Part shown: positions 11,335 to 52,556 of the stretch, piece after piece
Layout: each line of letters begins with the position of its first letter
Position numbering within the stretch: position 1 is the stretch's first letter
Assembly: GCA_963739345.1 (NCBI GenBank)
Contig: CAVUAA010000001.1
Coordinates: 859,749 to 923,748, forward strand
Length of the DNA: 64,000 bases
Direction: 5' to 3'
From: an uncultured Verrucomicrobiae bacterium
GTDB lineage: Bacteria > Chlamydiota > Chlamydiia > Chlamydiales > JAFEGQ01
Made by a program: the position numbers and the translations under genes
Notes under the pieces: generated by a model
What the model was told of the DNA's origin: nothing
Databases searched by the model: none
Seen by the model: only the letters and a program-made list of their open reading frames with translations

Positions 11335-12410
11335 GAATCCAATTCTAGGTGGTTGAGGATCGTGGTGTAAAGGTCGGTCTCTGGCTCGGGTGCGGAAGGA
11401 GGGTTTAGGGGGGTGTCGAGGGCGGCGAGAAGACGCTCTTCAGTGAGGTCTGTTTCGAGGATTTTGAGGGCGCCACCCCACGAGACTGCGCAGTCAGCAT
11501 TGGCGTTTTGATGGTCGTCAGCTGCATGAGGGTAGGGAATGAGGATGGCCGAGATGCGGTAGGCGAGGTGCTCGGCGATGGAGGAGGCACCAGCGCGCAT
11601 GATGACACGATCGGCAGCAGACCAGACGAGGGGCATGCGGGTTTCAAAGGGGACGACGTGCGCAGGAAAAGGATAATGGGGAAGCGGGTTGCCGTGGCCG
11701 GTGAGGTGGATCACTTGGATGTTTGGGCGGGTAGAGAGGGCGGCGTGGGCGATCTGATTCAGACGAACGGCTCCTTGCGAGCCGCCGAGGACGGCGATGG
11801 TGGTGCGGTCGGGTTCGAGGCCTAGGGCGATGCGGGCAGCTTGAGGGGTGTGGGATTCGATGGGGCGGAGGGGAAGGGGGATGTGGATCCCATTATCGAT
11901 GGGAGTATTGGGAAACTGAACACCAGTGAAGAGGGCCCGTTTGGCGAAAAGGCGGTTGACAAGACCGGGAGTGGCATTCCCTTCGTGGAGAATGATGGGG
12001 GTGCGACCGAGGGTGGCAGCGAGAAGGACCGGGAATGTATGGAAGCTTCCAAACCCAACCACCAGATCGGGTTTGAAGGACGAGAGAACTCCTAAGCTTT
12101 GGAGGGTGCCATTTGCAATGCGCAGAGGCTTGCGCGGGCGACCGGAGGGGACCTCGACGAAACGGAACTCGCCGCGGGCAAAGAAGGGCTTGTCGGTTAG
12201 CCCGCCGGCGACAAAGAGAATTTCAGGGCTAGAGGGATGCGCCTGAAGCTGGCGTGCCAACGCCTGTGCGGGAATCAGATGCCCCCCAGTCCCCCCTGCT
12301 GTGATGACGATCCGAACAGCGACCGAGGGGTCAGGCCTGACAATTGGACATTTGCTGGCAAATGTCCAATTGTCAGGCCTGACCCCATCGCTGCTCTTCT
12401 TTTTTCCCAT
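11331..12410 (-). CDS. murG: UDP-N-acetylglucosamine--N-acetylmuramyl-(pentapeptide) pyrophosphoryl-undecaprenol GlcNAc transferase
   Basis: ITAGGTGGHLIPAQALARQL motif and dcw context. The first ~28 codons include 20 codons supplied by the 60-bp palindrome at 12327-12386. No alternative start codon lies between the palindrome and the GGTGGH motif. Confidence 0.88.
   Translation of the reverse strand: MGKKKSSDGVRPDNWTFASKCPIVRPDPSVAVRIVITAGGTGGHLIPAQALARQLQAHPSSPEILFVAGGLTDKPFFARGEFRFVEVPSGRPRKPLRIANGTLQSLGVLSSFKPDLVVGFGSFHTFPVLLAATLGRTPIILHEGNATPGLVNRLFAKRALFTGVQFPNTPIDNGIHIPLPLRPIESHTPQAARIALGLEPDRTTIAVLGGSQGAVRLNQIAHAALSTRPNIQVIHLTGHGNPLPHYPFPAHVVPFETRMPLVWSAADRVIMRAGASSIAEHLAYRISAILIPYPHAADDHQNANADCAVSWGGALKILETDLTEERLLAALDTPLNPPSAPEPETDLYTTILNHLELDS
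12327..12386. repeat. 60-bp near-perfect palindrome (29-nt arms, 2-nt centre) carrying two GTCAGGCCTGAC cores
   Basis: GGGGTCAGGCCTGACAATTGGACATTTGC-TG-GCAAATGTCCAATTGTCAGGCCTGACCCC. It shares the GGGGTCAGGCCTGAC terminus with the element at 34043-34163. Confidence 0.9.
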
Positions 12411-13473
12411 CCACCTCCAAGATTAGCGCAAGGGCGATGATATTAGCCATGAGAGAGGAGCCCCCCTGGCTGAAAAAAGGAAGGTTGAGTCCTTTGGGGG
12501 GCATAATGCCGGAGACGACGCCAAGGTTGAGAAAGGCTTGAATGGCGATGAGGGAGGTAAGGGTAACGGCGAGATAGAACCCGGCGGGGTCGCGGGCGCG
12601 GCAGGCGATCCGGTAGCCGAGGAGGGCGAAGAACATGTAGAGGAGAATGAGGGCGAGGACGCCAACAAGGCCACTCTCTTCGGCGTAGACGGCCGCAATG
12701 TAGTCGTTCTGCGCTTCGGGCAAGTAGGTGAGCTTCTGCATGCTCTGGCCAAGGCCGCGCCCAAGGATGCCGCCGGCGCCAGCGGCGATTTTTGCTTGAT
12801 GCGGTTGGTGCCCTTTGCCGAGCAGGTCAAGCTCGGGATGCATATAGACCTGCATCCGCTTCTGCACATAGGGAAGCTGCCAGGCGGCAAGAGCGCCAAG
12901 CAGCGCAAGGGCCACCATGGGAGCGAGCCAGTAGCGCCCCTTGACGCCGGTGATGAGGCAGACGACCACAAGGGCGGAGGCGATGATGGCGGTGGTCCCG
13001 TTGTCGGGCTCGAGCATGATCAGGGCGAGTGGAACGGCGGCAAGAGCAGCAAAGCGAGCGAAACGAAGCCAAGTGAGCTCAGCACCAGCGAGGGTGTGGA
13101 TGGCAAAGAGGGGAAGAAAGATCTTGACGAATTCGGAAGGTTGGACGGTGAGGCCGGCGGCGCCGATCCACCGCCTAGCGCCGTTACGGACGACGCCAAT
13201 GCCAGGAACAAAGACGAGGGCGAGCAGGACGCAGAGGACGATCATGATCCCAAAGCTGTGATCAAGGAGGGTCCGGTAGCCGATGAAGCGGAGCAAGAGG
13301 CCGGCCCCTAGGCCGAGCAGCGCGTAGATCAACTGACGGGTGACGGCGGCGTGGGTACTCACCTTGAGATGACGATCGATGACGTCGGCCGACGAGGTAT
13401 TGAACACCATCACCAAGCCGATCGCAAAGATGACCACTGCGCAGATGAGAAGGAGGTATCGACTCCTGATCAC
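12373..13473 (-). CDS. ftsW: SEDS-family peptidoglycan glycosyltransferase FtsW
   Basis: 366-aa polytopic membrane protein with SEDS motifs (QPSEFVK, LPEAQNDYIAAVYAEE, PFFSQGGSS). It lies between murD/LysM and murG. Its stop codon TGA lies inside the palindromic element. Confidence 0.88.
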   Translation of the reverse strand: MIRSRYLLLICAVVIFAIGLVMVFNTSSADVIDRHLKVSTHAAVTRQLIYALLGLGAGLLLRFIGYRTLLDHSFGIMIVLCVLLALVFVPGIGVVRNGARRWIGAAGLTVQPSEFVKIFLPLFAIHTLAGAELTWLRFARFAALAAVPLALIMLEPDNGTTAIIASALVVVCLITGVKGRYWLAPMVALALLGALAAWQLPYVQKRMQVYMHPELDLLGKGHQPHQAKIAAGAGGILGRGLGQSMQKLTYLPEAQNDYIAAVYAEESGLVGVLALILLYMFFALLGYRIACRARDPAGFYLAVTLTSLIAIQAFLNLGVVSGIMPPKGLNLPFFSQGGSSLMANIIALALILEVDGKKEEQRWGQA

Positions 13474-26301: not shown

Positions 26302-28608
26302 TTATTGAGATTCGTTCAACAGGCGGGTGAGCTCTTCAAACACCCACGGTAAAAAAGCGAGCTGGAACTCGCGTGACGGCTCGCCGAGCGCCTTAGCTCG
26401 CTCAGCTTCGAGCTCTTTCACTTTCGCTTGATACCTCTTGGTGAGCTCTGTGATCGGCGCCATCATCTGCCGATCCTGTTTCAGTCGAAAGCCGAGCTGC
26501 TCTCTCTTCAGCGCCTCGAGCTGCTCACGCCTCTCGAGCAGACGCTTTCTCGTCTGAGAGGCACGAGCCAATAGCTCTTCACGAGCCTCCTCAAAGCGGG
26601 GGTCCCACTCTAGGAAGTTAACGGAGGCTGCTTGTAATTGCCTCGGACCTCCAACCTCTTTCGATGCTTCAAAGACACGCTGCCATGAGTGCTCAATACA
26701 GAGCTGACCCATCACCTCAGCCCGTTCGATATGGAGCTTCTTAAACCTCTCTTGGTATGCAGCTCGAAGGTAGTTCCGTTTTATCTCCCAATAGAGCTCC
26801 GCTTTGCACAACTCGCTGTAGCCAGGCGCTTCGCCCGCAATGATCTGTTCACTGACCGTCTTCAGCGCGTCAACCACATGCGCAAGCCCCTGGTTTTTGC
26901 CCCCTTTATGCAAGAGCTCGACCGCCTCGACCACCTTCTCGGCAAAAAAAGCTTCATCTTCACAAGCGGCCGCCTCAACCAGCTCGGAGAGATTGTTCCA
27001 CCCCAGATCGAAGATGGGGTGATCGCTGTGGTCGTAGATGGTGTTTAGGACGATGGTTAGAAAGTCCTTGGCAAGGCTATACAGCTCATCAGCTGTCTCT
27101 TTGACGGCATCGAGAGGGGGCGCATCGAACTCCTGCAGATCCTCCGCCCATTCTTCGATTTGCCTATCTATCGCCGGACCAATGACGAACCGGAAGACAA
27201 GCGGCTGGATGATGGCGCGTGCCGCCGGAATGAGCGCATAGAAGGTGGTCTTCTTGTTACGTAGTGACAGGACTCCATTGAGGAGGGTCTTGAGCGCTCC
27301 TAGTATGGTCTCCTGAAAGCCCCCCTCTTCTACGGCACTCCGGCCCTCCACCGGAACAACCTTTTGCTCGAGCGCAGAGGTATAGCTGCCAAGCGCCTTA
27401 GCAACACATGCCAGCTGCTTCGCCAGCTCCACCGGCTTTTCGGGTAGGTCCTCCAATGCTTTGATCGCGTCGCACACCACTTTGGTATCAATGCTGTTGA
27501 GCTCATTAACTTGGCTGAGCAGCGTCTCAACAGATTCCACCTTCTGTGCCTTCGCAATTTCCTGGCAACTGCAGATCAGCTCTGTCAAAGGTTTAAAAGC
27601 GGGGTAGTTCTTCTCCCATTTTCCTGCTTTTGCTCTCAGATAGGTGAAAGTACGCTCGACTTTGCCCATGAGCGAATCCACGCGAACTTTAACCAGGTCC
27701 CCGTGCCACGTACGTGTCATGGTGAGAAGCCGGGGTTCGTTTGCTTTGCCACCTTCCAAGAGGCCAAATAGCTCTGCAACCAACTCCAGCGAGGCAGTAG
27801 CCTCATTCCTGTTCCCAAAATGTGGACGGAGGGTTGTACGAGTCGAAACCTGTTCCTCCAACGAGTCACAGTTTTTGCGCAGATAACTGAGAATCGGTTC
27901 TGCAGCGTTGCGCACGCGATCGATCGCTGTGTTGAATCTCCCGGGGTCGTTGCCCCAGTAGCCACAAAGATGGCTCATCAGAGCGGAGACGAGACTCTTT
28001 AGTCGAACCATATGTTCGTCGACCGCGTTCCCGCGACGAATTAATTCAAAAAGAGCATCCCCACCCACGCCGCGGCTCAGTACCTCACCAAACCTTTTCT
28101 TCCGGTTAAGGTAGAGTCCCTTATGGAACTCTGTACACGCTCTCTTCCAACTCTGTGACACCTTACCCATTTTGTACCGGTGGACAGGAATCATGAAGCG
28201 CAATAGGTAGCGCTTCAGATCCTGTGGCGGATCGAACACATAATCGTCTGAAGTTGGAACCAGTTTCTTTTCGTCGTTCTGTAAAACATTGTCTTCCGAC
28301 ACGTCAGTGAACTCAGAGACGTCGAGTAACGTAGAACCAGCAGTGCGATCAACCCAAATGAGCTCAGTAACGTGAAGTAACGTAGAACCAGCAGTGCAAT
28401 CAAACCAAACTATGCCCTCTTCAGGCTTGTCGGCTTCTAACTCGACTTGTGGCTGCGAGCGGTGGCGTAGCGTATAGGTAACGCCAACAGCAATGAAGAT
28501 GGGGGTGGCGACGGCGGCGGTGCGGGCAACAAGTGACGCTTCATTCCATCCGCCACGAACAGATGAAAATAATCCTTGAGTCGAAGATAGTATTTCTCTT
28601 ACCGCCAT
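26302..28608 (-). CDS. large hypothetical protein: N-terminal TM helix, 17-aa tandem repeat, F-box-like motif, long helical/coiled-coil C-terminus
   Basis: 768 aa. TM helix AAVATPIFIAVGVTYTL. Tandem repeat WFDCTAGSTLLHVTELI/WVDRTAGSTLLDVSEFT. F-box-like PPQDLKRYLLRFMIPVHRYKMGKVSQSWKRAC. C-terminal stretch rich in E/K/R/L heptads. Confidence 0.6.
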   Translation of the reverse strand: MAVREILSSTQGLFSSVRGGWNEASLVARTAAVATPIFIAVGVTYTLRHRSQPQVELEADKPEEGIVWFDCTAGSTLLHVTELIWVDRTAGSTLLDVSEFTDVSEDNVLQNDEKKLVPTSDDYVFDPPQDLKRYLLRFMIPVHRYKMGKVSQSWKRACTEFHKGLYLNRKKRFGEVLSRGVGGDALFELIRRGNAVDEHMVRLKSLVSALMSHLCGYWGNDPGRFNTAIDRVRNAAEPILSYLRKNCDSLEEQVSTRTTLRPHFGNRNEATASLELVAELFGLLEGGKANEPRLLTMTRTWHGDLVKVRVDSLMGKVERTFTYLRAKAGKWEKNYPAFKPLTELICSCQEIAKAQKVESVETLLSQVNELNSIDTKVVCDAIKALEDLPEKPVELAKQLACVAKALGSYTSALEQKVVPVEGRSAVEEGGFQETILGALKTLLNGVLSLRNKKTTFYALIPAARAIIQPLVFRFVIGPAIDRQIEEWAEDLQEFDAPPLDAVKETADELYSLAKDFLTIVLNTIYDHSDHPIFDLGWNNLSELVEAAACEDEAFFAEKVVEAVELLHKGGKNQGLAHVVDALKTVSEQIIAGEAPGYSELCKAELYWEIKRNYLRAAYQERFKKLHIERAEVMGQLCIEHSWQRVFEASKEVGGPRQLQAASVNFLEWDPRFEEAREELLARASQTRKRLLERREQLEALKREQLGFRLKQDRQMMAPITELTKRYQAKVKELEAERAKALGEPSREFQLAFLPWVFEELTRLLNESQ

Positions 28609-28660
28609 AGGCGATAAATAATAAACTGTTTAGGAGTTTCCAGCAAGTGTTGCGAGGCGC

Positions 28661-28822
28661 AGACCCAGATTGCTACCCTATCACTCCTCTAGGGCGTCTG
28701 GTTTTAAGCAAGTTACGAGCATCGCGACGAACGGCGTGGCCACCAGCCAGGTCTGAGGAGCGAGGCAAAGTAGATTGCCAAAAACAGGCGTCATAGGGGG
28801 GAGAGTGTGGCAATCTGTGTCT
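28661..28822. repeat. ~160-bp TIR-bounded miniature element, copy A
   Basis: It aligns along its whole length with 48152-48317. The termini AGACCCAGATTGCTACCCTATC and GAGAGTGTGGCAATCTGTGTCT are inverted repeats of each other. Confidence 0.8.
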
Positions 28823-31883: not shown

Positions 31884-34042
<2,159 letters not shown>

Positions 34043-34163
34043 TTTGGGGTCAGGCCTGACATCATGACATCTCTCAACTTTTGCTTTGTCAGTCCGGGTT
34101 AATACGGCCAACTGTGACAACATATTTGTTTAGAGATGTCATGATGTCAGGCCTGACCCCAAA
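34043..34163. repeat. palindromic element: perfect 32-nt inverted arms around a 57-nt loop, GTCAGGCCTGAC cores
   Basis: TTTGGGGTCAGGCCTGACATCATGACATCTCT (34043-34074) is the exact reverse complement of 34132-34163. It starts 1 nt after the groEL stop. Confidence 0.9.
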
Positions 34164-34169
34164 TTAGAA

Positions 34170-36109: not shown

Positions 36110-36243
36110 GTCATTTTATACGTATTCTCTCCCGAGACGACAGTATGAGCATACTTGCGCAGGTCCTTCCCACAAGACTACCGCATGAGCATGCGACGCG
36201 CGGGTCCGCCAGATAGTGCAGTAAGCGACGATCCCAAGGGTTT

Positions 36244-36347
36244 ACCCTGGGTGAGGAGTACACTGTGCTATCTGGTGTGGCCCCCGCAAGCATGCACCCT
36301 GGGTGAGGAGTACACTGTGCTACATGGCGCGGGCCGCGCAAGCAGGC
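36244..36347. repeat. 52-bp direct tandem repeat, 2 copies
   Basis: ACCCTGGGTGAGGAGTACACTGTGCTA occurs at 36244 and again at 36296. The 25-nt remainders (TCTGGTGTGGCCCCCGCAAGCATGC / CATGGCGCGGGCCGCGCAAGCAGGC) are also related. It lies just 3' of the transporter gene stop. Confidence 0.8.
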
Positions 36348-43779: not shown

Positions 43780-43878
43780 TGGCTCCGTTTGCTGCCTTCC
43801 CCTAACTGATAGGGCGTTGAATTTTGAGCGAGGAGAAGCAGATCGTCTAAAGCAAAGAGAAGCATGGAGTAATCTGAT

Positions 43879-46807: not shown

Positions 46808-47965
46808 ATGACCGGTAATAGCAAGCAATCAGGTGATAATTTTCCACAAACCGCTAACTATCAGGCGCTAGCCAGACGCTACCGTCCGCAACGATTTGCC
46901 GATGTCCTTGGTCAAGAGGCGATCGTCACCACCCTCATCAACGCACTTCAAGGGGATCGACTCGCCCACGCCTATCTCTTTTCTGGTGCTCGCGGCACCG
47001 GAAAGACCACCCTCGCCCGCATTCTGGCCAAAGCGATTAACTGCGAACAACGGCAAGATGGCGAGCCGTGCAACAGCTGCCCCTCCTGTCACGAGATCAC
47101 CTCCGGCGCCTCCCTCGACATCCTAGAAATTGATGGCGCCTCCCACCGGGGCATCGATGACATCCGACAGATCAACGAGACCGTCGGCTACGCCGCTCCC
47201 AAAGGGCACCATAAAGTCTACATCATTGACGAAGTGCACATGCTCACCAAGGAGGCGTTCAACGCCCTCCTCAAGACCCTCGAAGAGCCCCCTCCCAAAG
47301 TGAAGTTCTTCTTCGCCACCACCGAACCGCACAAGATTCCCCCCACTATCATCAGCCGCTGCCAACGCTTCCAACTCTCCCGCCTCACTCCCGAGCTCAT
47401 CATCACCAAACTGCGCGCTGAGTGCCAGGAACTGAGCGCCACCATCACAGACCCCGCCCTCTCCCTCATCGCACAAGCAGCCGAGGGGGGCATGCGCGAC
47501 GCCGAGTCCATCCTCGACCAAGTCCTCTCCTTCCACGGCCAGGAAATTGACGAGCAAGCTGTCGCCGACGTCCTCGGCCTCGCTCCTAAGACCACCTATA
47601 TCCGTCTCGATGAGGCGGCCAAAACCCACGACCTCTCCATCCCCTTCGACATCGTCGACGAAGTCTTCTCCTCAGGCCGCGACCTCACCCACTTCATTAC
47701 CGGCCTCATCGAGCACCACCGCTCCCACCTCCTCCACGCCATCAGCAACACCCCCACCCCTTACACTCGTGCCCAACTTCTCACTCTCCTTGATGATTTG
47801 TTGCTTGCACAGGAGCGCTTCCGCCACGCCCCTTCCAAGCGCATCGCCCTTGAGATGATGCTCACCCGCATCGTCCGCACCCCTCGTCAAATCCCTCTCG
47901 AAGAGCTCGTCGACCGCCTCATCTCCCTCGAGTCCCGCCTCGACTCTCCACTGCCTCCTCCGTAA
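46808..47965 (+). CDS. dnaX: DNA polymerase III subunit gamma/tau (C-terminal 48 codons continue in the +1 frame to 48110)
   Basis: YRPQRFADVLGQE, GARGTGKTT, zinc module CNSCPSCHEI, IIDEVHML, SRCQRF. After the TAA at 47963-47965 the +1 frame reads KAAPKPQPKPVPAPEQNKVATPQSRYDTLIRFAAVELDGRVENARSRR* (stop at 48108-48110), followed by a T7 run. Confidence 0.88.
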   Translation: MTGNSKQSGDNFPQTANYQALARRYRPQRFADVLGQEAIVTTLINALQGDRLAHAYLFSGARGTGKTTLARILAKAINCEQRQDGEPCNSCPSCHEITSGASLDILEIDGASHRGIDDIRQINETVGYAAPKGHHKVYIIDEVHMLTKEAFNALLKTLEEPPPKVKFFFATTEPHKIPPTIISRCQRFQLSRLTPELIITKLRAECQELSATITDPALSLIAQAAEGGMRDAESILDQVLSFHGQEIDEQAVADVLGLAPKTTYIRLDEAAKTHDLSIPFDIVDEVFSSGRDLTHFITGLIEHHRSHLLHAISNTPTPYTRAQLLTLLDDLLLAQERFRHAPSKRIALEMMLTRIVRTPRQIPLEELVDRLISLESRLDSPLPPP

Positions 47966-48151
47966 GGCCGCTCCAAAGCCTCAGCCCAAGCCTGTACCTG
48001 CGCCGGAGCAAAATAAAGTAGCGACCCCTCAGAGTCGCTACGACACCCTCATCCGTTTTGCCGCTGTCGAACTTGACGGCCGCGTTGAAAACGCTCGCTC
48101 ACGCCGCTAGCGATTTTTTTCTCGCTCAGCTATTCTGTTTTCCAAAACCAT

Positions 48152-48317
48152 AGACCCAGGTTGCTACCATACCCTTCTCCTAGGGCGTCTGGTTTTGAGC
48201 GAGATACGAGCATTGCGATGAACGGCGTGGCCGCTGGCCACGTCTGAGGAGCAAGGCGAAGTAGATCGCCAAAAGCTGAGCATCATAGAGAGAGGAGAGG
48301 GTGGCAATCCGGGTCGT
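48152..48317. repeat. ~160-bp TIR-bounded miniature element, copy B
   Basis: Colinear with copy A: AGACCCAGGTTGCTACCATACCC...TAGGGCGTCTGGTTTTGAGC...GAACGGCGTGGCCGCTGGCCACGTCTGAGGAGC...GAGGGTGGCAATCCGGGTCGT. It has a central hairpin CGTGGCC-GCT-GGCCACG. Confidence 0.8.
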
Positions 48318-50529: not shown

Positions 50530-50785
50530 ACGAGGCAAACCCGCAACTAGCTATTAATGAGCGTCTTAAGTCCTATGGGGAGTCATAGGGAGAGGATAGT
50601 GTAGCAATCTGGGTCGCTGCCTCAGAGAGGAGGATTGCTGGCTAGGTGGGTCTGGAAGACCCGCCTTGCCCGAAATTCTGCTGAGGGAGGCTAGCGAAGT
50701 GGTTGAGATTTGCGAATGAACGACGAACGTACGTGGTCAAGGGCCACGTACGAGGAGTTCAATCATGAAGATTGACCACTTTGCT
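50530..50785. repeat. degenerate copies of the ~160-bp TIR element (a 3' fragment followed by a diverged, internally deleted copy)
   Basis: 50585-50617 (ATAGGGAGAGGATAGTGTAGCAATCTGGGTCG) matches the 3' TIR of copies A/B. From ~50625: GGATTGCTGGCTAGGTGGGTCTGG..., TTGCGAATGAACG...CGTACGTGG-TCAAGGG-CCACGTACGAGGAG..., GAAGATTGACC parallel the 5' TIR, central hairpin and 3' region of copy B. It abuts the ptsI stop. Confidence 0.45.
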
Positions 50786-50789
50786 AGCC

Positions 50790-52556
50790 TCAGTCGGTAG
50801 AATTTTGAGTAAGGTGGGTCTGGTAGTGTTGGATGAGGGTGTCGAGAATCTCCATGGAGGTGGGCATGGCGAGGATACGCTCGGCGAGCTGGGTGGCACG
50901 GACGATGCTGCAGGCGCGGATGGCGTTTTTGACGATGGGGAGGTAGCGAGCGGAGACGGAGAGCTCGTGGACGCCGAGGCCGAGGAGGAGGGGGGTGAAG
51001 CGGGGGTCGGCGGCCATCTCGCCGCAGACGGTGATGGGGATGCCGTTCCGGTTTCCTTCAGAGACGATCATCTTGATGAGGCGGAGGACGGAGGGGTGGG
51101 CGGGGGTGTAGAGGTAGCTCATGGCCTGGTTGTCCCGGTCAACGGCGAGGGAGTACTGGACAAGGTCGTTGGTCCCGATGGACATGAAGTCGCACTCGCG
51201 GGCGAGGACGTCGCAGGTGATGGCGGCGGAGGGCACTTCGATCATGCAGCCGAGGGGGATGTTTTCGTCGAAGGGGATCCCCTCTTGACGGAGCTCTTCC
51301 ATGGCCTGGCGGACGTACCCTTTGGCTTCCATGAGTTCTGGGAGACCGGAGACCATGGGGAAGAGGATGCGGACATTCCCGTTAACACTGGCGCGAAGGA
51401 TAGCTCGGAGCTGCACCTTGAACGCTTCATGCTCTTTGAGCATGAGGCGGATGGCGCGGCAGCCGAGGAAGGGGTTCTCTTCGTGCTGGACGATGGGGAG
51501 CTCGCGAAACTTATCACCGCCGACATCAAAGGTGCGGATGGTGACCGACTTGCCCTCCATCGCCTCCGCGATGCGGCCGTAGATGAGATACTGCTCCTCT
51601 TCTGAGGGGAAGTTTTGGCGGGCGGTGAGGATGTACTCCGAGCGGAAGAGGCCAACGCCGCTCCCTCCATACTTCTTTAGCAGTTCGAGCTCGTTAAACA
51701 TCTCGATGTTGGCAGAGAGGACCACCTTGTAGCCATCGATGGTCTCGGAGGTAAGGTGGCCGAGCGCTTCAAACCGCTCAAAATGACGGGCGTGTTCCCG
51801 CTTTAGCTCCCGGTACTTGGAAAGGGTCGCTGGGGTGGGGTTGAGGATCACCTCGCCGTTACGACCGTCGACGATGACAATGCCACGGGAGAAGTCGCTC
51901 GCATTCCGAAAGTCAACACGAGCGACGTAAGGGATCCCCTTCGCCTTGGCCATGATGGCGGCGTGAGAGGTGTCGCCGCCTACCTGTGTAACAAATGCGC
52001 TAATGCGAGAGGTGTCAGCCTCGGCGGTGTCGGAGGGGGTCAGTTCGTGAGCGAAAACAATCGCGTTCTCGGGCGCCTCTTCGAGGGGGACGCGGACGCA
52101 GGCGCGAAGACGCCCCATCACCCGCCGGCCAATGTCGTTCAAGTCGTTGAGTCTCTCGCGAAAATAGGGATCGTCAAGGGCTCGAAACTTGTCGGCATAA
52201 TTGTCGATGGCCCGCTGGAACACATGCTCGACGTTTTGGAGGGTGGAGCGAATCTGCTCCTCCACTTCGTCAACGAGAATGGGATCGCGAATGATGTGGA
52301 GGTGCGCTTCGAGAATGGCCGCCCCTTCGACTGCGCCTTCGGCTTCGAGCTTGCCACGCAAAACTCTCACTTGCCCCTCGCTCTCTTCGAGGGCGGAGTG
52401 GTAGCGGGCAATCTCCCCTTCTACTTCGTCGATGGCAATCGTAAAATGGGGAACAACAGCTTGCGGACAAGTGTACACAAAAGGCGTGCCGATGGCGATA
52501 CCGGAACAGATCGCCGCACCTCGGAGCCGAATCTCTTTCACTTTACTCTTTACCAT
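50790..52556 (-). CDS. ptsI: phosphoenolpyruvate--protein phosphotransferase (PTS enzyme I)
   Basis: GGDTSHAAIMAKAKGIP (active-site His region), GLFRSEY, and SIGTNDLVQYSLAVDR. Confidence 0.9.
   Translation of the reverse strand: MVKSKVKEIRLRGAAICSGIAIGTPFVYTCPQAVVPHFTIAIDEVEGEIARYHSALEESEGQVRVLRGKLEAEGAVEGAAILEAHLHIIRDPILVDEVEEQIRSTLQNVEHVFQRAIDNYADKFRALDDPYFRERLNDLNDIGRRVMGRLRACVRVPLEEAPENAIVFAHELTPSDTAEADTSRISAFVTQVGGDTSHAAIMAKAKGIPYVARVDFRNASDFSRGIVIVDGRNGEVILNPTPATLSKYRELKREHARHFERFEALGHLTSETIDGYKVVLSANIEMFNELELLKKYGGSGVGLFRSEYILTARQNFPSEEEQYLIYGRIAEAMEGKSVTIRTFDVGGDKFRELPIVQHEENPFLGCRAIRLMLKEHEAFKVQLRAILRASVNGNVRILFPMVSGLPELMEAKGYVRQAMEELRQEGIPFDENIPLGCMIEVPSAAITCDVLARECDFMSIGTNDLVQYSLAVDRDNQAMSYLYTPAHPSVLRLIKMIVSEGNRNGIPITVCGEMAADPRFTPLLLGLGVHELSVSARYLPIVKNAIRACSIVRATQLAERILAMPTSMEILDTLIQHYQTHLTQNSTD

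Follow-up and report, generated by a model that had tools for sequence, protein, structure and literature searches.

Hairpin-forming miniature elements with IS982-family ends at or near the ends of genes in a chlamydia-like genome

The window, that is, the whole 64-kb stretch of DNA analysed here, contains a family of short hairpin elements; its copies A, B, C1 and C2 are very probably non-autonomous MITEs of an insertion sequence (IS) of the IS982 family. The copies constitute a repeat family, they are polymorphic for insertion among related genomes, and they have their ends and internal motifs in common with an IS982-family IS; from these sequence features, mobilisation in trans by the transposase of such an IS, and a role of the hairpin in that process, can be proposed. 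The MITE-like character that the first-pass annotation had ascribed to these elements is thus upheld by their shortness, the lack of a transposase ORF within them, their inverted-repeat termini (TIRs), their dispersed loci, the empty sites in relatives, and the occurrence of identical copies at different loci.

Copy A (28661-28822, plus strand; 162 nt) forms one hairpin throughout and scores 165 bits against a covariance model built from five copies; copy B (48152-48316, plus strand; 165 nt), in the dnaX-ybaB spacer, scores 153 bits. As already noticed by eye in the first-pass annotation, A and B repeat one another from end to end, with 81.7% identity over 164 columns (BLAST E ~1e-37), and the first 123 nt align without gaps at 85% identity; since the flanks of A and B are mutually unrelated, a segmental duplication is not the source of their likeness. 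The TIRs of A lie at 28662-28677 and 28806-28821, and the 16-17-nt TIRs are complementary at 14 of 17 positions in A and at 13 of 17 in B. With up to three mismatches allowed, the TIR core GACCCAGATTGCTACC occurs at five sites in the window (28662 and 48153 on the plus strand; 28806, 48300 and 50600 on the minus strand), each of them an element end, against a chance expectation of 0.57; the inverted termini originally proposed are therefore genuine, and metagenomic copies of the element carry the exact 16-nt core at both ends. The third locus had been read as a 3' fragment followed by a diverged, internally deleted copy. The fragment stands as C1 (50579-50616, plus strand), a 38-nt 3' terminal piece of the A/B type that consists of the right TIR and ~20 nt and is 81-85% identical to A and B at their 3' termini. 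Its neighbor C2 (50657-50821, plus strand) turns out to be complete, a hairpin of 165 nt that belongs to a sister subfamily and has the termini AGACCCGCCTTGCC...GGTGGGTCT; it matches the covariance model over positions 1-162 (56 bits, E ~1e-11), and therefore it is not an internally deleted copy. A marginal, possibly decayed fourth copy lies at ~43789-43860 (plus strand), where the 5' and 3' arm motifs are recognisable by weak BLAST matches (75-86% identity, E ~0.003); its centre and outer TIRs are gone. Every copy in the window, C1 and this possible relic among them, has the same chromosomal orientation, in numbers too small for significance; the GC skew over the 64 kb is too noisy to tie element orientation to the direction of replication.

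On the plus strand, A and B fold with minimum free energies of -77.1 and -80.3 kcal/mol (z = -7.0 and -6.0; 0 of 200 shuffles fold equally well), compared with only -53.2 and -62.3 kcal/mol on the reverse strand. The internal hairpin that had been described around the central CGTGGCC-GCT-GGCCACG is present, and it extends beyond this centre over the whole element. A check for covariation, as had been recommended, demonstrates that the hairpin is clearly conserved by compensatory change: across five copies 96.7% of the cells pair, and compensatory double changes affect 10 of the 60 pairs, where shuffles yield 3.0 +/- 1.3 (10 being reached in 0 of 500) and slid controls 0-3. The plus strand folds better in all seven elements, by 12-35 kcal/mol (G-U pairs, 5-11 vs. 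0-3); with the covariance model, A/B-type copies obtain 153-184 bits in their better orientation and 50-79 bits in the reverse one, and the copy on metagenomic contig L012 obtains 83 bits. Conserved CUGAGGA and GAA motifs were compared with hammerhead and K-turn structures; the cores do not fit by eye, Rfam returned no match, and both candidates were rejected.

The suggestion that the elements might instead represent a structured RNA or a terminator module spread through the genome is not borne out. A search against Rfam yielded no match at gathering score in the window, nothing around A at E <= 10, and around C2 a lone sub-threshold match to a generic long hairpin, the model of a plant miRNA precursor; terminator-like sites (a G+C-rich stem-loop followed by a T-run) were absent from both strands at A, B, and C2, and promoter-like sites were not found in or at the elements. 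The orientation of the elements relative to the flanking genes varies, such that the transcribed strand is the weakly folding one for A and C2, and the strongly folding one for B; this inconsistency argues against a general role at the mRNA level. With a length of 162-166 nt the elements have nearly all of their six frames interrupted by stops, the longest open stretches reach ~45-58 aa, and six-frame translation revealed no transposase-like ORF; the concatenated six-frame peptides, used as the query of a protein search, returned no relatives.

Copy A lies between two co-directional genes on the minus strand and has altered the end of one of them, a 1055-aa transporter/HEAT/cNMP-binding gene. 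As the first-pass annotation had recognized, A provides the final 49 codons of this reading frame together with its stop (28673-28822, minus strand), which are read from the weaker-folding strand; the ancestral C-terminus RLATLAGNS* is found displaced and out of frame just past A, at 28630-28659 on the minus strand. Orthologues of the gene product show 86% (P0122), 73% (P0123), and 56% (P0124) identity; P0123 and P0124 stop where the element-encoded tail of 49 residues begins, and P0122 keeps only ~11 element-encoded residues, ending in ...LPPSPPL. At the nucleotide level, site A is empty in two related contigs (L006 and L007; gene 73% identical), where ...CGTCTC is followed directly by CGCCTCGCTACGCTTGCTGAATAG; in the window, 163 nt (AGACAC...GGGTCTG) split this sequence between ...AGACTC and CGCCTCGCAACACTTGCTGG..., and the comparison of the filled with the empty site leaves a single extra base. 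A closer relative (L005, 86% identical) carries insertion A at the same nucleotide, on a contig that ends in the middle of the hairpin. In this copy a 1-nt indel closes the reading frame after ~11 element codons, and thus the peptide added by A is not conserved. The 49 in-frame codons from A are included in a public protein (P0121, 1053 aa); a HMMER search of the 51-aa tail against 1.84 billion proteins gave weak matches of a low-complexity or repeat-like kind, the best of them with E 9e-7 and none at or below 1e-10. The half of A that is available in L005 is 96.6% identical to the window over 87 nt, compared with a mean of 83.6% for the surrounding 5.3 kb; only 0.08% of 87-nt windows match at 96.6% identity, a figure that refers to a single short stretch. 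Conservation at this level would not be expected of a selfish relic in decay.

Site B is likewise polymorphic. B begins 41 nt past the stop of the dnaX C-terminal frame (48108-48110) and ends ~13 nt upstream of the ATG of ybaB, both genes being on the plus strand; the earlier statement that all copies sit directly at or across a stop codon does not hold for B. The site is empty in L003, where dnaX and ybaB are ~15 nt apart, and in L004, where they abut. The dnaX-ybaB spacer of a further relative (L002) contains a 162-nt hairpin element that was considered as a diverged form of B; it is without alignable similarity to B and without a match to the covariance model, and accordingly it is a different element.

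C1 and C2 occupy the interval that separates ptsI from a 351-aa gene, on the minus strand. C2 encodes the final 9-10 codons and the stop of ptsI (...QTHLTQNSTD*), where orthologues end in QTHIAGVVAN, QTYIAGVA, or QKHISVVA; the ancestral tail QTHLASNPPL* is displaced and remains just beyond C2, at 50622-50654 on the minus strand. A candidate target-site duplication of C2 is the 12-nt direct repeat AGGTGGGTCTGG at 50644-50655 and 50812-50823; the alternative is a 7-nt duplication that matches at 6 of 7 positions (CTGGAAG, 50652-50658; CTGGTAG, 50820-50826). The PtsI protein is 100% identical to P0001, encoded on a contig of 1,252,598 bp, and its nearest named relatives belong to the Parachlamydiales, Simkania, and the Chlamydiales. 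The order of dnaX, ybaB, ptsI, ptsH, and hprK is the one typical of chlamydiae.

Family members also occur outside the window and its orthologous regions. A TIR-to-TIR pattern scan of JGI metagenomes yielded five contigs (L008-L012), four of which (L008, L009, L010, and L011) hold full copies with 75-83% identity to A and B; the copy on L012, a contig of an AT-richer genome, agrees with them in TIRs and internal motifs and differs in its stems. The copies on L009 and L011 are identical in sequence and differ in their flanks. Altogether, metagenome loci L008-L012 and L023 contribute at least six further copies, and copies of the family come from at least five independent datasets. Dispersal into unrelated flanks is thereby combined with presence/absence polymorphism at the orthologous sites A and B; copies beyond any duplication exist, and so does a matching full-length IS, the two observations on which the first-pass annotation had made its reading depend. 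An internal 22-mer pattern gave no matches in the metagenomes and one chance match among genome contigs (L001, Salinicoccus), and a scan of viral contigs with the 16-nt TIR gave six unrelated chance matches, all of them in phage genes. Target-site duplications were not recognisable at A, B, L008, L009, L011, and L012; in L023 and L010b, elements have landed in the middle of other MITE copies, at GTC^TGA^GGAG, and these nested insertions fit a 3-nt duplication of TGA.

The transposase that the first-pass annotation had left unnamed can be assigned to a family: a full-length IS with the same TIRs, the search for which had been advised, was found as a 1159-bp element of the IS982 family with a left end identical to nt 1-18 of the MITE. 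The left inverted repeat (IRL) of this IS is GACCCAGATTGCTACCCTGA and the reverse complement of the right one (IRR) is GACCCAGTTTGCTACCCTGA, with agreement at 19 of 20 positions. Contig L010 carries a complete transposase ORF; on L009 the same gene is cut at ~residue 160 by a MITE copy, and upstream of it lies an end identical to the MITE TIR. The L010 ORF is an IS982-family transposase by its match to NCBIfam NF033520 (161 bits, cut-off 130; model positions 1-240 of 243), by Pfam DDE_Tnp_1_3 matches, and by its best tblastn matches, which are annotated as IS982-family transposases. The single ORF of the 1159-bp IS encodes a DDE transposase of 275 aa. P0154, a member of the 90% cluster of this transposase, has the loci L021-L025; L021-L024 hold the complete IS, its left end in four different flanks and its right end in three (L021 and L023 have the right flank in common), with the limitation that these contigs are short-read assemblies whose left and right flanks are possibly mis-joined, and in L025 the IS is cut short of its right end. 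The 20-nt inverted repeats read GACCCAG(A/T)TTGCTACCCTGA, and the 5' end of the MITE is identical to IRL at 18 of 18 nt. Annotated IS982-family elements on Pseudanabaena and Rhodothermus plasmids have closely similar ends (AACCCAAGTTGCTACC and TACCCAAGTTGTGACC, respectively), and thus the end type of the MITE and the IS fits this family. Compared with the inverted-repeat consensus 5'-AC(N)6T(N)5TT, the ends G-ACCCAGAT-T-GCTAC-CC have the AC and the T at position 9, and CC replaces TT at positions 15-16; the Pseudanabaena reference end likewise has CC, not TT. At least four intact 275-aa variants of the transposase (P0153, P0155, P0156, and P0161) belong to the same 90% cluster, with 94-99% identity among themselves and 90-92% to the copies on L010 and L021. 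They are encoded on a contig of 1,252,598 bp, equal in length to the one that carries the PtsI (P0001) and the 1055-aa protein (P0121) of the window; judged by this agreement in length, the source genome probably carries several intact transposase copies, at least four; no IS copy is located inside the 64-kb window. On L010, the transposase gene is followed at the contig end by MITE fragments in direct orientation that replace the right end of the IS, an arrangement that may represent a nested insertion or a mis-assembly.

The MITE and the IS are linked by structure as well as by their termini. A subterminal hairpin of roughly 130-150 nt lies just inside both IS ends, and each end folds better when read inward (left end, -96.6 vs. 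-80.3 kcal/mol on the other strand; right end, -83.3 vs. -64.3 kcal/mol); in this inward-reading orientation the MITE covariance model matches the right end with 53 bits and the left end with 34 bits. Two purine-rich internal loops on either side of a 3-bp helix are formed by AGATACGA and GAAGTAGAT, motifs that recur in A, B, the copies from metagenomes, L012, and the IS right end; in C2 they are degenerate (AGATTTGCGA and GAAGAT). L012 and C2 have further stretches in common with the IS right end, among them GCGAAGTGGTT-AGAT in the case of C2. A and B have only the 18-nt TIR and short internal motifs in common with the recovered IS, with no long stretches, and therefore they are not simple or recent deletion derivatives of the recovered IS copy. 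The MITE is, in essence, one IS end-module closed by both TIRs. Since the IS ends show the same strand asymmetry, the asymmetry of the MITEs would come mainly from a cis requirement of the transposon on one strand; the hairpin and its compensatory changes most likely reflect this requirement, inherited from the IS ends and acting on the inward-read strand. Long hairpins just inside both termini have, to our knowledge, not been described as a feature of the IS982 family. In the proposed mechanism, the MITE would retain what the transposase needs in cis, namely one IS end module and both terminal repeats, and full-length IS copies elsewhere in the genome would supply the transposase in trans. 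Insertions would persist at sites of low cost, namely short spacers and the very 3' termini of genes; in the latter case the element sequence would replace the original last codons and give a new stop, resulting in the 49-codon tail of the 1055-aa gene and the 9-residue tail of PtsI.

A different reading of the conserved fold is that the element has been domesticated, and that the host keeps the hairpin as a functional single strand, either as an RNA that stabilises or processes neighbouring mRNAs, a function that has been proposed for ERIC and Correia elements, or as an ssDNA or cruciform signal. Several observations are compatible with it: the structure is preserved (96.7% of cells paired, 10 of 60 pairs compensatory), the plus strand folds better in 7 of 7 elements, purine-rich internal loops are kept across subfamilies with different stems, the orthologous copy of A in L005 stands out against its surroundings (96.6% vs. 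83.6%), and the window copies, with C1 and the possible relic, follow one chromosomal orientation. However, hairpin, motifs, and asymmetry are all found at both ends of the autonomous IS, and constraint by transposition covers most of the pattern without a host function; the orientation relative to flanking genes varies, promoter- or terminator-like sites and Rfam matches were not found, L003 and L004 lack an insertion at site B, which in L002 is occupied by a different hairpin element, and the orthologous conservation amounts to one 87-nt stretch. Domestication is therefore considered unlikely, if still worth weighing. A related and equally speculative proposal, more doubtful than probable, is that the ~130-160-nt hairpin with its tandem G-A loops, G-U pairs, and inward-read strand could be an obligatory ssDNA or RNA cis element of this IS982 branch, and/or that solo MITEs could have been domesticated by the host; the latter, if true, would account for an orthologous copy that is as conserved as the best coding stretches.

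Coding palindromes of the Rickettsia RPE type, which spread in frame into genes and add a selected peptide segment, would find a parallel in the 49 in-frame codons that A adds and that P0121 includes, and in several metagenomic ORFs that enter copies and end in TQIAT... peptides. Such an origin is very improbable, as the frame in L005 differs from that in the window by a 1-nt indel and the peptide is not conserved, the frame and the end at which genes enter the copies vary, no gene contains B, C1, or the possible relic at ~43789-43860, and the matches of the A tail are weak (best E 9e-7). Imperfect palindromes just after genes, and strand-asymmetric hairpins as in attC sites and IS200/IS605 ends, also recall REP/BIME (RAYT) elements, PATEs of the IS200/IS605 type, or integron attC sites; the probability of this group is lower still, given that the termini agree with those of the IS982 family and of an actual IS of that family, that dnaX, ybaB, and ptsI, which flank the elements, are core housekeeping genes and not cassettes, that GTTRRRY/RYYYAAC core sites are absent from the ends by inspection, and that 162-nt elements with 16-20-nt TIRs are far above the 20-40 nt of REP sequences. 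Chance similarity or a local segmental duplication, for which nothing speaks but the low copy number in the window, can practically be discounted against an A-B BLAST E of ~1e-37, unrelated flanks, and copies in at least five independent datasets. The preferred reading remains that of MITEs derived from an IS982-family element.

Among known systems, the closest counterpart is MITECca01, an IS982-derived MITE of ~240 bp with 169 copies in a Cardinium endosymbiont (PMC9769881). Both are non-autonomous, with inverted repeats that match an IS982-family IS of which intact copies are present in a host-restricted genome (here apparently so), and both occupy intergenic sites and the inside of mobile elements, as in the nested copies of L009, L010, and L023. 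They differ in host (Bacteroidota vs. a Chlamydiota-like organism here) and in length (~240 bp vs. ~162 nt); unlike MITECca01, the elements described here have an end-to-end hairpin that corresponds to the IS subterminal module, and two copies remodel the C-termini of housekeeping proteins. What is new is a chlamydial MITE of an already-known kind, the IS982-derived MITE described in Cardinium; the literature searched contained no report of MITEs in Chlamydiae. Members of the IS982 family are ~1 kb long, with AC ends, inverted repeats of 11-32 bp, and direct repeats that are absent or 2-10 bp long, and three of them, ISPasp1-3, are known from Parachlamydia (PMC7335449, Fayad et al.). The partner IS conforms to this description with its size of ~1 kb, its one transposase, a repeat matching at 19 of 20 positions that falls inside the 11-32 bp range, and direct repeats that appear to be variable or absent here, as reported (PMC7335449); its terminus continues from AC to CCAG.TTGC, as in the reference ends. 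The MITEs differ from the family in lacking a transposase, and their termini have GAC, not AC, at the very end.

Comparable elements of other origins are ERIC/IRU (MITEEc1) in enterobacteria and Correia/NEMIS in Neisseria, which are likewise imperfect palindromes of ~100-160 bp with TIRs, located near genes and capable of forming long RNA hairpins upon co-transcription; they belong to unrelated host clades and have unrelated sequences. RNA-level effects of ERIC and Correia elements, such as processing by RNase III or RNase E and the provision of promoters, are documented, whereas no promoter or terminator signal was found here. The RPEs are similar in being palindromic repeats of an obligate-intracellular-type genome that are sometimes found inside coding regions; they sit in frame inside genes and their peptide is kept, whereas the present elements reach only the 3' ends of genes, their frame is not conserved, and a cognate transposase is identifiable.

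No general concept is altered by these elements, which are fairly ordinary mobile DNA. They connect the MITEs of a chlamydia-like lineage with an element of the IS982 family, in a form in which the MITE corresponds to a hairpin end-module found at both IS ends, and the strand-asymmetric module may offer a way into the still-unknown mechanism of IS982 transposition. For annotation, the C-termini of the 1055-aa protein and of PtsI are transposon-derived, not ancestral, and gene callers silently include them. For assembly, contigs of related organisms break exactly at the repeats (L005, L008, and L010), and partial or nested element copies are found at contig ends.

All element copies and fragments in the window, which begin at 28661 (full MITE copy A), 43789 (a possible decayed copy), 48152 (full MITE copy B), 50579 (C1, a 3' fragment) and 50657 (C2, an element of the sister subfamily) share one orientation, on the + strand, regardless of the direction of the neighboring genes. 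This common orientation is suggestive of a chromosome-strand bias, with a sample of only five; the GC skew of the window was uninformative on such a bias. Nested or abutting insertions were found in three metagenome contigs: at 720-880 of L009, an IS982 transposase is truncated by a MITE copy; at 1-110 of L023, the center of a MITE is occupied by the insertion sequence; and at 1079-1171 of L010, MITE fragments follow the transposase gene in direct orientation, in place of the right inverted repeat that would be expected there.

The native 3' end of ptsI in this clade, CAGAC[G/C]CACATTGCTGG (encoding QTHIAG), is itself similar to the terminal inverted repeat of the element, AGACCCAGATTGCTACC; this TIR-like stretch is found at 50644-50655 of the window and at 11710-11770 and 11701-11761 of the related loci L002 and L003, respectively. 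The insertion point of C2 lies directly beside it, a juxtaposition of sequences that may reflect targeting of inverted-repeat-like sequences or, alternatively, an older insertion.

The window dnaX gene is split (47880-48110); a 385-aa ORF stops at ...SPLPPP-TAA (47963-47965), and its continuation, the conserved C-terminal part (…KAAPKPQP…SRYDTLIRFAAVELDGRVENARSRR*), lies in the +1 frame and runs to 48110. In the relative L002 (PtsI 85% identical), dnaX is a single ORF. The split may stem from an indel in the sequencing, from dnaX being a pseudogene, or from a frameshift of the tau/gamma type. In L002, the dnaX-ybaB spacer holds a different, 162-nt hairpin element on the minus strand (about 13156-13317), with a perfect 26-bp terminal stem, GCTAGTACCCAATCCAGAAGGTTCTG, and a folding energy of -87.8 kcal/mol (z = -9.5); the MITE covariance model gave no match to this spacer element. 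A further metagenome element (L012, 1733-1892) has the same TIRs and GA-loop motifs as the MITE, combined with different stems and with an apical hairpin homologous to that of the right end of the insertion sequence; its source genome is AT-richer, and a GST-like protein is encoded among the neighboring genes.

A second, unrelated palindromic family is represented in the window by elements of 86 nt (12314-12399) and 129 nt (34039-34167) with the shared core GGGGTCAGGCCTGACA (repeat family D15, pairs I2 and I4); this core is also present in metagenome contig L022, where it adjoins an insertion sequence copy, in the left flank. Two tandem duplications (families D10 and D11) consist of two 51-nt units with 86% identity (28308-28409) and of two 52-nt units with 81% identity (36235-36338); the former is located within the 768-aa ORF that lies immediately downstream of copy A. 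Finally, a 127-nt region at 63751-63877 (pairs I3, I7 and I8; family D12) is made up of two 41-nt arms, AAATTGTCACA...TGTGACAATTT, that are 100% complementary, and each arm is a near-palindrome in its own right.
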